This document shows positions 265 through 63,660 of a stretch of DNA of 64,000 bases, piece by piece (positions within the stretch are counted from its first letter, which is position 1; each line of letters begins with the position of its first letter). Location of the stretch: contig OZ024742.1 of the NCBI GenBank assembly GCA_964016885.1, forward strand, positions 275,032,001 to 275,096,000. The letters are read 5' to 3'. The stretch is from Eledone cirrhosa (taxonomy: Eukaryota). The translations under genes and the position numbers were made by a program. Under the pieces are notes generated by a model. That model was not told the DNA's origin, did not search any database, and saw only the letters and a list, made by a program, of their open reading frames with translations.

Positions 265-1865
265 AAGAAATCGAAAATGAATATTTTTACCGGTTTCACC
301 TGTATTATGCTTTTCAAAAGTAGAATTGAGATGGAGGGTTTGTGGTTTTTCTCGCATATGGTTGGTGTTCGAATGTTACTTCTGTTTTTTGTGGAAAAAA
401 TTGGCTCGAATTGCTAGGTTTTAAAAAAAAGTAATTTGATTGGATCATAACTGTCACCTTAATAAGTATAACAAATGTTGCGCCAGTTCCCGTTACAAAT
501 TTCTTAGTTTATTTGCCTTTAAAAAAAGTGTCTCAAATTGTTTTTTCATATATAAGTGAAATTTGGTTGGTTGATGACAGTCACGTGAATAAGCTGATCA
601 ACTTTCCCACCAGTTCGTGTTTGAGGATTCCTTATTGTCATTTTCACGTAAAGAAGTGGCTCAAAATGCTGTTTACTATAAATGTAATTTGATTGGCTAT
701 GACTGTCACGTGAATAAGTACATTAAGTTTCGCTCCATTTTGTATTTGGGGGTTCTTTGTTGCCGTTTTTACAGTCACATAATTTGTCATAGAGAGTTTT
801 GTGCCAAACAATAGATAATGGTCAAGAAAAGGGATGGGGAGAAATCGTTCTCTTTCAGTGCTGAGGGGTTAAAATTCAGACTTTCTATTGAAATAAATTG
901 AATAGTTGTACCCATAGTGGTGTTGGCCACAGGGTAGAAAATAGAGATATATATTTATGTTTGTGTGCGGATGTATGTGTGTTTATGTGGGGGTCAGGGT
1001 GATTCCACTAGTAGAAATGGAAAAGGGAGTTATGTGTGTGTGTGTATGGGTGTTATATGTGTGTGTGTGTAAGGTATGGTTAGCATGTTAAGGTTTTAAA
1101 GTCTATTTAGCTCTGGTTTTTATTTTCGAATATAGAAGAGGGTGTTATGTGTTTGTGGGTATGTATGTGTCTGTTTGGATGGTTAGCATGTTATTGTGTT
1201 AACATATTAATGTTTATTAAACTATATTCCTTGCTGGGCTATATTTTTGAATAAACATATTTTCCTTATTTATTCGTATATGGCCTGTTCTATTGTCAGC
1301 GCATAGATAAAGAGGGAGGACTTGGAATTTGGATGTCTTATCGCTTGTGTATCTGTCTAGATGTGTACTGAGTGGTATCTGTCTCGTAATTGTTAGCGAT
1401 GAATTGTCATCCTTTTTCTGAGCGTGAGCTTAGTTTGTCCTATATAAACTTCATTGCATCCTTTACATTGCATCCTTTACATTGAAAGTACATTTTTTGA
1501 TGAGCAACTGAAGTGATTTTCTACAACGAAATTTTGTCCTGATTGAAATGTATACATGGTGCCTTCAATGAGGTGAGTGCAAGGTCCGCAATTAGAGCGA
1601 CCACATTTTTTTGACAGTTGGTTGTGGGTTTGTGATGGGTAATTTGTCATTGGTGAGTAATGTTTTTAGGGATTTAGGTTATCTTTTGCTTTTGATTATT
1701 TTGTGTGTTTCAAGGGCTTTTTTCATTCTTGGGTCTTGTTTCAATGTTCTTGTGAATAATGTTGCATGCTTCCATATTTCTTGGGTTGTGTGTTGAGATA
1801 TGTGTGTGATAGAATTTTGGACGTACCTTGAATTTGTTTCTGTTTTCGTAATTCATCAATGCTTT
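265..1865 (-). mobile_element. 5'-truncated, decayed Penelope-like retroelement (GIY-YIG end plus long 3' tail/pseudo-LTR)
   Basis: Colinear with 60950-62630 throughout (e.g. tcaaaagtagaattgagat, cagactttctattgaaataaa). The minus-strand frames at 1210-1860 give the PLE endonuclease C-terminus (YIGQTKLTL, EQAIYE*IRKIYVYSK region homologous to ORF 61972-62178). Confidence 0.85.
283..322 (-). ncRNA. degenerate minimal type I hammerhead ribozyme in PLE tail
   Basis: Minus strand reads TTGAAAA-GCA taataca GGT-GAAA-CCGG-TA. GAAACCGGT is the typical PLE minimal-HHR stem III palindrome. Stems I and II are weak. Confidence 0.45.
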
Positions 1866-1969
1866 TTATGAAACCAGAATTGATGAAACATATTATATAT
1901 ATATATATATATATATATATATATATATATATATATAAGATATGTCTCATCAATTCTGGTTTCATAAAA
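1864..1969. repeat. inverted repeat (~30-bp arms) enclosing a (TA)n tract
   Basis: ttttatgaaaccagaattgatgaaacatat ... atatgtctcatcaattctggtttcataaaa, one mismatch. Confidence 0.9.
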
Positions 1970-60706: not shown

Positions 60707-60949
60707 CTTCTTATATAATAAGGTTACGTTCCCAAGGCAATCCAAACAGAAAGGACAAGGGTACTGACATATACATATATATATATATATTATATACACA
60801 CACAGACACCCACATATATATATATATATATATATATATATATATATATATATATATATATATATATATATACATATATATATATATATATATATATATA
60901 TGTGTGTGTGTGTGTGTGTGTGTGTGTGTGTGTGTGTGTGTGTGTGTGT

Positions 60950-63660
60950 GAAATCGAAAATGCAACTGGAGTCTTTTTTTTTAAATATATTTATTTGGTT
61001 CCGTTACCGGTTTTGCAGTTCTTGTGCTCTTCAAAAGTAGAATTGAGATAGAGGGTTTGTGGTTTTTCTCACAACTGGTTGGTGTTTGAATATTACTGCT
61101 GTTTTATATGGAAAAAAGTGGCTCGAAATGCTAGGTTTTTACAGAAGTAATTTGGTTGGTTGGTGAATAAGTATAATAAATTTCGCGCCAGTTCACGTTA
61201 CAAAGTTCTTATAGTTGCCTTCAAAAAAAGGGGGCTCAGCTTGTTTTTTCATATATGAGTGAAGTTTTGTTGGTTGATGCAGTCACGTGAATAAGCACAT
61301 TAGCTTTCGCACCAGTTTGTGTTTGAATTTCTTTTTACTTTAAAAAAAGTGGCTCACGAAGGCTTTTTTTAAATAAATGTAATTTGATTGGTTATAAATT
61401 AAATTATGACTGTCACATGAACAAGTACTTTAAATTTCACGCCCGTATTTGGGAATTGTTTTGTAGCGTTTTGAAAGAATGTTGTGCCAAACAAAAGATA
61501 AGGGTCAAGAAAAACGGGATGGGGGAATTGTTCTGGTTCAGTGAATATGGCTGGTGTGCTGGGGTGTCAACATTCAGACTTTCTATTGAAATAAAGAAAG
61601 TAGAGATATGTATGTTTATTTGTGTGCTGGTGTGTGTGTGCGTAGAAAGATGATTCTTTTTGTAGAAATGGGGAGGGAGTTGCGTGTATGTATGGATGTT
61701 ATGTGTGTGGGAGTATGGTTAGCAATTTGAGATGGAGAGAATATAAATATTCTGTGTGTGTGTGTACGAAAATGATTCCGTTAGTAGAAATGGGGGAGGG
61801 AGTTATGTGTATGTGGGGGTGTGGTTAGCATGTTAAGGTGGTAGAGTATTAACGTATGTTAAGGTTTATTTAGTTGTGGTTTTTATTTTCTAAAATAGAA
61901 GGTGTTATGTGTGTGTGTATGTATGTGTCTGTTTGGATGTTTAGCATGTTATGGTGTTGACATAATGTATATTAAACTATATTTAATGCTGGTTTATATT
62001 TTTGAATAAACATATTTTCTTTATTTATTCGTATTTGTTCTGTTGTATTGTCAGCGCAAAGATAAAATGGTAAGACTTGGAATTTGGGTGTCTTATTACT
62101 TGCGTATATGTCTAGATGTGCACTGAGTGGTATCTGTCTTGTGGTAGGGTCTCGTAATTGTTGGCGATGAACTGTCATTATGTTTCTGAGTGTGAGTTTA
62201 GTTTGTCCTATATAATCTTCATTGCATCATTTACATTTAATGGCATAAAGTATATTTTTTGATGATCTAGGGAAGTGATTTTTTACAGCAAAATTTTGTC
62301 CTGATTGAAATGAATACGTGTTGCCTTCAATAGGTGAGTGCAGGTTCCACAATTAGAGTGACCACATTTTTTGACAGTTGGTTCTGGGTTTGTGGTAGGT
62401 AATTTGACATTGGTGAGTAATGCTTTTAGTGATTTCGGTTGTCTTTTGCTTTTGATTATTTTGTGTGTTTCAAGGGCTTATTTTAATTCTTGGGTCTTGT
62501 ACCAATAGTGGGATGTTCTTGTGAATAATGTTGTAAGCTTCCGCATTTCTTGGGTTGTGTGTCGTGATATATGATAGAATATTGGACGTACCTTGAATTT
62601 GTTTCTGTTTGCGTAATTCATCAATGCCTATTCCATTATTTATTAGTAATGGTGGTTACTCTCTTTCGAGTAGAATTTCCTTTAATTCTTGAAGTCATTT
62701 ATTTCGCGTTTCATAATTGGAGACAATTGTGCAAATTCTTCTTGCTAGGTTAAAAGGGATGTTCTTCTTCGTGTGCTTTGGGTGGTTGGAGGTGAATAGC
62801 AGGTATTGTTTGTATTCTGTTGCTTTGTAGTGGATGTCAGTTTCAATATTTGTGTCTTTTTTATGATTCAGAAATGGGCGTTGATCTTGGCTGTATTCCA
62901 TTGTGAATTGGATGTGGTTATTGATGCCGATAATTAATTTTTGAAATCATTTAGTTGGTCGAGTGTGTGAGACCAAAGAATGAGACAATCATCCAATTCT
63001 ATTGCTTTCATAATTGCGTTTCATAATTGGAGACAATTGTGCAAATTCTTCTTGCTAGGTTAAAAGGGATGTTCTTCTTCGTGTGCTTTTTTAGTTAAGT
63101 CTTCCTGGTATCGACAAATGAATGTGTTTAATCTGGTCATCGTTTTTGATTGCTGTTAGTTTTTTACTCTTTCATAGTAGTTAGTATCTTGTAAGAGAGA
63201 GAACATAGAATGTTTATATTGTTCAGCAACCATAATGACGACAGCACTTCCCTAGTCTGCTTCCTTAAATATAATGTCAGTATTGTTCATGGATAATCTC
63301 CCATTCCCTTCGTCTCGTGTTGGGTTTGGGTTTAGGTTACGTTAGTTCATGGTATGGGAAAGTTGCTATGTAGTCACAAAATTTGTCGAGAACTCTATTC
63401 CTACCCTTTATTGGGTAGTAGCTGCTTTTATTCCGTACAATTGATTGGTCGTTATTCTCCTTGTCAAAAAATTCCTCTGTGAGACGTAATTTTCGACAGA
63501 AGTGTGAGATATCGTCATTTATCTTATTGAGGTTACAGTATTGTGGTGTTGGTGTGAATTTCAGTCTGTTGGAGAGAATTTTAATTTGTTGGGCTGGGAA
63601 ATTTGTATTTGAAAGGTTGATTCTTTTCGGTGTTTCAAAATCGGTTTGTGACACCGGGTG
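60950..63660 (-). mobile_element. Penelope-like element with internal RT deletion
   Basis: N-terminus RINLSN...LKFTPTP...FCRKLRLTEEFF; IFKEAD*GSAVVIM; TDIHYKAT..QYLLFTSNHPKHTKKNIPFNLARRICTI; GIY-YIG end RINKENMFIQKYKPALN; ~1 kb 3' tail. Confidence 0.92.
61004..61039 (-). ncRNA. degenerate minimal hammerhead, paralog of 283-322
   Basis: TTGAAGA-GCA caagaac TGC-AAAA-CCGG-TA; G12 is mutated. Confidence 0.45.

Follow-up and report, generated by a model that had tools for sequence, protein, structure and literature searches.

Hammerhead ribozyme motifs of Penelope-like elements and a retrozyme-type repeat in a 64-kb stretch of the Eledone cirrhosa genome

A stretch of 64,000 nt from the genome of Eledone cirrhosa (contig OZ024742.1, positions 275,032,001 to 275,096,000; hereafter the window) contains about 20 hammerhead ribozyme (HHR) motifs, namely the 17 sites reported in a first-pass annotation and three additional decayed ones. 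The window is part of a 3.0-Gb assembly, has a GC content of 39% and is rich in (TA)n microsatellites; its repeats seem octopod-like in make-up. No host gene was recognised among its sequences; they include stacked transposon remnants, i.e. reverse transcriptase (RT) and endonuclease fragments of long interspersed nuclear elements (LINEs), a hAT transposase and three remnants of Penelope-like elements (PLEs). This raises the question of which elements carried the ribozymes there and what the ribozymes might do for them. An association of HHRs with PLEs is already established (PMC4209133; review PMC6765202). Our analyses suggest, with a probability of roughly two in three, that type I HHRs in the terminal repeats of PLEs and of their passengers cut tandem transcripts, that the products probably become circles used as insertion templates, and that mostly 5'-truncated copies in (TA)n are the outcome.

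Each of the 17 sites was read individually and proved to be an HHR motif or a decayed homologue of one, the position by which it had been named being the low edge of the motif. All 11 sites previously described as well-formed show a type I organization, with a C3UGANGA9 core or its U3-A8 or C4 variant, G12AAA, U16.1-H17, three helices and an open stem I. U4C core variants are known in other systems. A strict descriptor that requires an intact core, GAAA, UH and both stems I and II accepts nine of the 11, with cores at 7491 (-), 7936 (+), 26105 (-), 31923 (-), 37812 (+), 44345 (-), 44498 (+), 58796 (+) and 60702 (-). The other two keep intact cores with weak stems: the motif at 25946 has a 3-bp stem I and carries ACAAGTGT in place of the ACAATTGT found in 13 of 15 copies of its family, and stem I of the motif at 34611 is only 3 bp long. 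The six sites regarded as degenerate are homologues of intact families, as indicated by BLAST matches to intact motifs (283, 3725, 6928, 36029 and 61004) or by 81% identity to the 34611 copy (33230). BLAST also recovered the three motifs absent from the earlier list, at 11564-11621 (-), a minimal HHR with a changed G12 and 98% identity to an intact family; at 34503-34541 (-); and at 37493-37535 (+), the 3' half of a motif of a further family, with the core missing. The density of one motif per about 4 kb proposed earlier holds if decayed copies are included, and has to be lowered to one per about 7 kb for intact motifs. In agreement with the first-pass annotation, most copies lack an adjacent open reading frame (ORF) and many have a long stem II.

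Chance matches, inflated by (TA)n microsatellites that supply GAAATATATAT, might account for such a census; ATATATAT is used by three families, and a satellite elsewhere in the genome gave false matches. The controls refute this explanation, which we consider practically nil. The strict descriptor finds nine sites in the window and 0-2 in the controls, i.e. the reversed sequence and block shuffles that preserve microsatellites. A scored descriptor at a threshold of at least 10 gives 10 matches, compared with none when the window is reversed and 0.4 on average (maximum 1) in 10 block shuffles, and a palindrome-only descriptor gives 6 matches versus 0-0.13 in dinucleotide, local and block shuffles. 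In addition, at least 15 other palindromes occur. A descriptor match at 28963, inside the hAT ORF, was dropped as chance.

The ribozyme-bearing DNA had been taken largely as PLE tail sequence. The link to PLEs is direct in six of the ten window families (A, C, D, E, G and I), whose HHRs lie downstream of PLE RT/GIY-YIG sequence. Family B is a non-coding tandem unit of retrozyme type and no PLE tail, and families F, H and J could be tied to no ORF. In family D the full element consists of an HHR, a 5' untranslated region (UTR), an 832-aa RT/GIY-YIG ORF, a 1.45-kb 3' UTR and a second HHR. At two loci (L206 and L209) the 832-aa ORF, with YRDD and VIY..YVG motifs, is intact between same-strand C4 HHRs spaced 4,172 and 4,199 bp apart; a single ORF with RT and C-terminal GIY-YIG thus lies between direct pseudo-long terminal repeats (pLTRs), as is typical of PLEs. 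The direct repeats at these loci are 428-476 bp long, and the inverted arms are >99% identical. The distance from the end of the endonuclease to the HHR is 1,424-1,454 nt in 11 family D copies and 1,196-1,198 nt at three family E loci (L201, L202 and L210). In family G, two HHRs at a distance of 3,856 bp enclose a full element with a frameshift, and in families A and C the endonuclease lies upstream of the HHR in the window and, for family C, at three other loci as well. The insertions display 5' truncation, an inverted 5' arm and a one-sided tail, which are hallmarks of PLE insertion. The closest named homologues of the PLE protein are molluscan (32-39% identity), and a genome search with one endonuclease query returned 58,275 first-look candidates, 150 of which were scored.

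By the marks given by Craig et al. (2021; PMC8557442, bioRxiv 2021.04.23.441226), the carriers of families A, C, D, E and G match Hydra-type PLEs at the sequence level. The DKT motif is present in the D and G proteins and in 18 of 19 aligned homologues; a CxCX5C linker, together with a GIY-YIG endonuclease lacking the CCHH cysteines, occurs in families D, A, E, G and C; and the elements share with the Hydra clade the HHR, insertion into (TA)n and a tail extension at one end. They differ from the Hydra elements described there (few families, generally <3 kb, tail of 30-40 nt) in having units of 3.9-4.2 kb, 3' UTRs of 1.2-1.45 kb and a tail of about 90-165 nt. The carrier of family I, in contrast, looks Neptune-like: its remnant at 61900-63640, one broken copy read across frames, shows a putative CX4CxxC linker and putative cysteines within GIY-YIG, resembling the CX2-5CxxC linker and CCHH endonuclease of the Neptune clade.

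The window holds these carriers in various states of decay. The family A insertion (3675-7137, -) retains a Hydra-type GIY-YIG end (5129-5759, minus), a 3' tail of about 1.35 kb and a decayed C4 HHR (3714-3819), and its inverted arm has a second decayed HHR (6871-6976, plus). Family C (24773-25995, +) is a broken Hydra-type RT thumb/endonuclease with an HHR about 200 nt downstream (core 25952, H17 25981), a palindrome with one change and an end in (TA)n. Within the microsatellite at its end lies a 5'-truncated family D copy (26023-26314, -) with an inverted long end and an intact C4 HHR (core 26105, H17 26067). Family E is represented by two copies with intact HHRs, at 31824-32061 (-; core 31923, H17 31877) and, as a solo copy between (TA)n runs, at 37690-38016 (+; core 37812, H17 37856). 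Many family E copies (L021-L050 and the window copy at 37690) begin at a common ATATG site about 118 nt upstream of the core, which suggests 5' joining by microhomology to (TA)n. The inverted insertion of family G (44127-44600) has two intact HHRs (H17 44297, minus; 44546, plus). Family I (60949-63997, -) has a decayed U3-A8 HHR (60990-61049) downstream of the broken ORF and an inverted arm at 63688-63997; a second, truncated Neptune-like copy (287-1862, homologous to 61004-62627) has at its 3' end an HHR with an intact U3-A8 core and eroded stems I and II (286-332, -).

Among the families tied to no ORF, family F has a copy with an intact HHR at 60508-60767 (-; core 60702, H17 60638). F-like sequences include a copy with a deletion (33201-33311, -), homologous to the 34611 copy, and an old inverted insertion (34389-34792) comprising the minus-strand 3' half-motif at 34503-34541 and the weak HHR at 34611-34662 (plus, H17 34657). 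No PLE ORF is clearly contiguous upstream of family F in 14 stretches of 10 kb. At one locus (L262:1093-2414) family F HHRs lie in direct orientation 1,321 bp apart around non-coding sequence, a single case of a possible non-autonomous unit. No ORF link was found for family H (58780-58913, +; intact core, 8-bp stem I, eroded stem II base, H17 58871) or family J (36026-36105, +; a decayed HHR of the long stem II superfamily). For family H the exact pattern matches the window copy alone in the genome, and a DNA search of the genome gives 43 matches.

Family B (7167-8096) has two inverted arms in the window, each with an intact U3-A8 HHR (H17 7412, minus; 8015, plus), and one long and one short end in (TA)n. 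It is a non-coding unit of 590-595 bp (591 nt in the window), arranged in arrays of up to 5, and dispersed copies hold 1-8 units. Among the first 100 of 5,578 matches in the genome, 56 lie 590-607 bp from a neighbour on the same strand, 30 are solo, and there are 12 divergent pairs. The loci consist solely of the unit, with flanks mostly of (TA)n, and the longest ATG ORF is 75 aa. Non-inverted insertions end about 80 nt past H17; by our count, 9 of 10 inverted insertions, the window copy included, have one arm ending at about 80 nt and the other at about 245 nt. The median divergence is 1 difference per about 255 nt between units of one insertion versus 5 between insertions; 13 of the 49 within-insertion values are 13-51, which is attributed to segments spanning inversion junctions.

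From its unit structure, two fixed ends and (TA)n flanks, family B qualifies by sequence as a non-LTR retrozyme and would move like the adjacent PLEs. It shares with metazoan non-LTR retrozymes (Cervera and de la Pena 2020, PMC7229834; Li et al. 2026, 10.64898/2026.07.22.740005) a tandem arrangement of non-coding units that each have one type I HHR, a GC content of 41% and dispersal as monomers to multimers. What sets it apart from those described is the 591-nt unit, the U3-A8 core, a stem II of 57-59 nt and the mode of insertion, which targets (TA)n and leaves 5' inversions of PLE type as well as two fixed ends; the words "inverted" and "microsatellite" do not occur in the main text of PMC7229834. 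Arrays of this kind could also be local, immobile satellites that arose from a solo pLTR by unequal crossing-over, a route discussed by Li et al. (2026) and compatible with the high identity within arrays. This origin is very improbable for family B, of which there are thousands of dispersed copies with 1-8 units; these end at fixed points in (TA)n, are truncated to varying extents on the 5' side and have 5' inversions as in the autonomous family D, and none of 67 family B motif matches has PLE ORF sequence within 2.5 kb upstream (most loci span only 1.5 kb). A 620-nt closed-cycle contig of family B, from one of four sequencing runs of undefined kind, was not used, since tandem DNA yields the same. 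About half of the sampled words of one family B unit (L155:994-1584) are present in sequencing runs coded as organisms B and C (X4 at low depth). Another retrozyme-type family has a tandem HHR unit with a 310-bp period and an inverted arm (L017:189-809 and L205:4084-5287).

What served as the template of these insertions can be approached from their ends, which were located in 16 of 25 (B), 25 of 25 (D), 25 of 30 (G) and 24 of 30 (E) loci. In all four families the located ends lie in microsatellites, 40-250 nt downstream of the cut site, and fall at either of two preferred positions, namely 77 and 245 nt past H17 in B, 42 and 209 in D, 50 and 142 in G, and 54 and 152 in E. None is at the cut site, and all read through the intact ribozyme. 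Neighbours within 7 kb are mostly divergent (50 versus 4 convergent pairs among 300 listed B, D and E matches). Since the ends lie past the cut site and never on it, the template should be either a re-ligated circle or uncut RNA; a linear RNA cut at both ribozymes is rejected because it could not template read-through ends. A circle is favoured because family B lacks an ORF, has retained a core predicted to fold well and gives rise to arms of several units. In the proposed mechanism, two HHRs of the same family would join by base pairing of the palindrome and of stem I, which would serve as the family address, and would cut after H17; family B may also act as a monomer. The unit RNA would be ligated after cleavage, the PLE endonuclease would nick (TA)n, and the free ends would act as primers at AU-rich sites located 40-250 nt beyond the junction. 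Copying by the RT would then run through the rebuilt ribozyme and give pLTRs, arrays and inverted arms. Family B would borrow Hydra-type proteins for this purpose, and most solo genomic copies would be passive, inert by-products.

The alignments and predicted folds bear on the helices of the motifs and on pairing between two copies. In an alignment of 32 of 39 distinct family G copies, 97.2% of the cells are paired, compared with 38-48% once the partners are slid, and there are 12 changes on both sides versus 3.6 in shuffled data (0 of 500). In the superfamily formed by A, J and H, compensatory changes occur at 6 of 8 predicted pairs of the long stem II (12 of 13 sequences). Among 14 family D palindromes, ACAATTGT occurs in 7, ACAGTTGT in 4 and ACAGCTGT in 3; the centre changes in pairs, as expected if the palindrome pairs with a second copy. 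Covariation is present in family G, in the A/J/H superfamily and in the family D palindrome. In 103 distinct copies of G, E, D and F found by BLAST, N7 is variable and every other core position has at most 2 changes per family; among family F loci fetched with a pattern that omits the 5' core, CTGAYGA is present in 21 of the 22 copies retaining the region. For the nine intact motifs, the predicted homodimer is 8-16 kcal/mol better than two folded monomers, and the predicted monomer fold of family B is within 1.5 kcal/mol of its minimum. Stem I pairing predicted between families is mostly 0-3 bp. Cross-family heterodimers, considered because palindromes are shared, were rejected as a reading, stem I being mostly incompatible.

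The long stem II also bears on the proposal that the motifs come from many unrelated families. The motifs at 3725/6928, 36029 and 58788 have it in common, with covarying pairs, and the window families are thus not all unrelated. Inside stem II, a motif (AGA-R-T facing GAGCT) recurs in divergent families whose stem I and palindromes differ, in the window at 3725/6928, 36029 and 58788 and elsewhere at L103:322-419, L224:479-575 and L270:2302-2398; it is possibly a tertiary or protein-binding element.

A different template is conceivable, namely an uncut read-through or multimeric linear transcript, in which the HHR serves only to detach the upstream copy from the 5' end of the PLE mRNA, a role played by hepatitis delta virus-like ribozymes in R2, and no circle forms. 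The family D cut site lies about 210 nt before the long end and just upstream of the ORF start, which suits such 5'-end processing. However, family B, which has no ORF to free, has an intact core that is predicted to fold well. Moreover, up to 5 near-identical units occur in its arms; on a linear template, a motif predicted to be active would have to stay uncut in long multimeric RNAs. We therefore consider a linear template unlikely, though a serious alternative. Two further lines of evidence favour it and at the same time weigh against the circle; the remaining observations of this paragraph weigh against the main reading in general. Naiad PLEs without HHRs are reported to show identical tandem, inverted and tail architecture (Craig et al. 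2021); therefore the architecture by itself needs no ribozyme. Moreover, weak cleavage in vitro was reported for PLE minimal HHRs (PMC4209133), and just one of nine Xenopus retrozyme dimers is described as cleaved (10.64898/2026.07.22.740005). Same-strand partners within 7 kb were found for just 6 of the 100 first-listed E copies and 10 of 100 D copies, and no autonomous partner with sequence similarity to family B was found. The Rfam hammerhead models, suggested as a check, gave no match in the window at the gathering threshold or at E<=5. A Pfam search of the 832-aa family D ORF gave no match; among its homologues, P0001 and P0113 carry PF01541 and P0117 carries PF00078. Kinship among the sequences inflates the significance of the covariation, the N7 variation of family F falls at a CpG, and the family F motif at 60702 is predicted to favour a different fold.

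The number of such motifs in the genome was estimated in two ways. Exact partial-motif patterns matched 7,324 (E), 6,327 (G), 5,578 (B), 5,552 (I), 3,770 (D) and 3,180 (C) times, and the reversed patterns never; the sum of 31,731 for the six families is a hard floor. Meanwhile, sixty 10-kb stretches were sampled in even steps (40 on C1-C4 and 20 on smaller contigs). The strict descriptor gave 33 matches in them, compared with 1 in reversed and 3-4 in shuffled sequence. A satellite of about 32 bp at L076:7600-8000 mimics a U3-A8 hammerhead and was the source of false matches; its rows were dropped (2 in the strict sample, 10 in the set of the blind descriptor described below, and the entire stretch in the union count). 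The union of two descriptors over the remaining 59 stretches (590 kb) gave 46 matches with a background of 3, i.e. one per 13.7 kb, which extrapolates to about 218,000 intact motifs (bootstrap 132,000-315,000). The genome thus likely carries some 200,000 intact HHR motifs. The window, with nine, has about twice the sampled average, and a high density is a genome-wide feature. Clustering of 208 distinct motifs gave 41 clusters, about five of which are likely noise (35 or more families).

A descriptor blind to the inner letters of stem III gave 46 matches in 600 kb of evenly spaced stretches and 1, 0 and 1 in controls. After removal of the satellite matches, 22 of 36 are palindromic (16 perfect, 6 with G-U pairs); therefore the palindrome is no artefact of the descriptor. 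A minority with a non-palindromic stem III of 3 bp and a triloop (5 of the 36 sample matches; L051-L110) may be active as monomers.

At one motif per about 14 kb, many copies are presumably intronic, and some might have been exapted by the host as RNA-processing switches in introns or UTRs. This is most improbable: no host gene was recognised in the window, and the copies decay like neutral repeats.

Much of the intergenic DNA had been supposed to belong to HHR-bearing elements; these account for no more than 24.5% of the window (15.7 kb, counting microsatellites), and the LINE and hAT remnants, at about 23 kb by our estimate, have a larger share. The hAT transposase is near-intact (26935-29672, -) in pieces of 533, 127 and 282 aa (DUF4371, hAT dimerisation). 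An AP-endonuclease LINE is present in several copies with 70-82% identity (16.1-24.7 kb and 48.1-57.4 kb), and a second LINE type occurs as fragments (11.8-14.1 kb and 51.7-52.7 kb); these may be L1/Tx1-like and R4/Dong-like, respectively. A SINE-like repeat of about 185 bp has five copies with 85-95% identity (8517-8697, 12414-12597, 31020-31208, 41261-41450 and 57520-57630), and a near-perfect palindrome (98%) of 193 bp at 30686-30878 is MITE-like or a fold-back.

Cervera and de la Pena (2014; PMC4209133) described thousands of heterogeneous PLE HHRs, mostly solo and located in pLTRs, with U3-A8 cores, a large helix II, palindromic stem III and opposite-strand pairs 100-700 bp apart, and already proposed a model with dimers and circles; all of these features recur here. 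The present motifs differ in number, about 2x10^5 by estimate versus about 9,000 in Xenopus, about 4,000 in coelacanth and about 3,300 minimal HHRs in Schistosoma, figures obtained with other descriptors. They also differ in having a stem II of up to about 110 nt that is branched, palindromes of 6-12 nt and C4 cores in an intact element. In axolotl, 126,247 HHRs were counted with another descriptor in a genome of 28.21 Gb (PMC7229834). We found no cephalopod HHR census in the literature, where supplementary tables of earlier papers could list cephalopod motifs; the repeat annotation of Octopus vulgaris (PMC13282606) gives Penelope families and, in the part available to us, mentions no ribozymes. 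A PLE origin of retrozymes has been argued from co-occurrence and from pLTR homology and trees (Li et al. 2026), and the insertion anatomy found here is a separate line of evidence for it.

The HHR motifs are genuine, exceed chance by a wide margin and can be explained by known biology (Cervera and de la Pena 2014); their value lies in their number, in how prominent Hydra-type elements are and in the presence of a helper and a passenger that are both young. The role of the HHR in endonuclease-bearing (EN+) Penelope elements has been stated to be unclear (Craig et al. 2021), and the movement of animal retrozymes is described as unresolved (10.64898/2026.07.22.740005). In this genome the full-length Hydra-type elements are young and nearly identical, and a non-coding HHR unit, also young, has the same targets and end structure; both issues thus become testable with natural sequences, and the pair is suited to testing the circle model. 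With some 2x10^5 motifs from at least 35 families, the genome offers a natural collection of variants of the core and of stem II that Rfam misses, and such a load raises the question of how long introns tolerate HHRs. We put forward only tentatively, and with some doubt, the joint proposal that self-cleaving ribozyme motifs are denser here (about one per 14 kb, roughly 16 times the axolotl value) than in any animal counted so far, that this load was built mainly by Hydra-clade PLEs, and that family B is a parasite in the form of a 591-nt circular RNA, which the Hydra RT/endonuclease rolls into (TA)n, as its insertion scars would show. If this is true, an intact helper and a young passenger, side by side, would provide the first working system for retrozyme mobilisation, and stem I together with the palindrome would constitute a family-specific dimer code.

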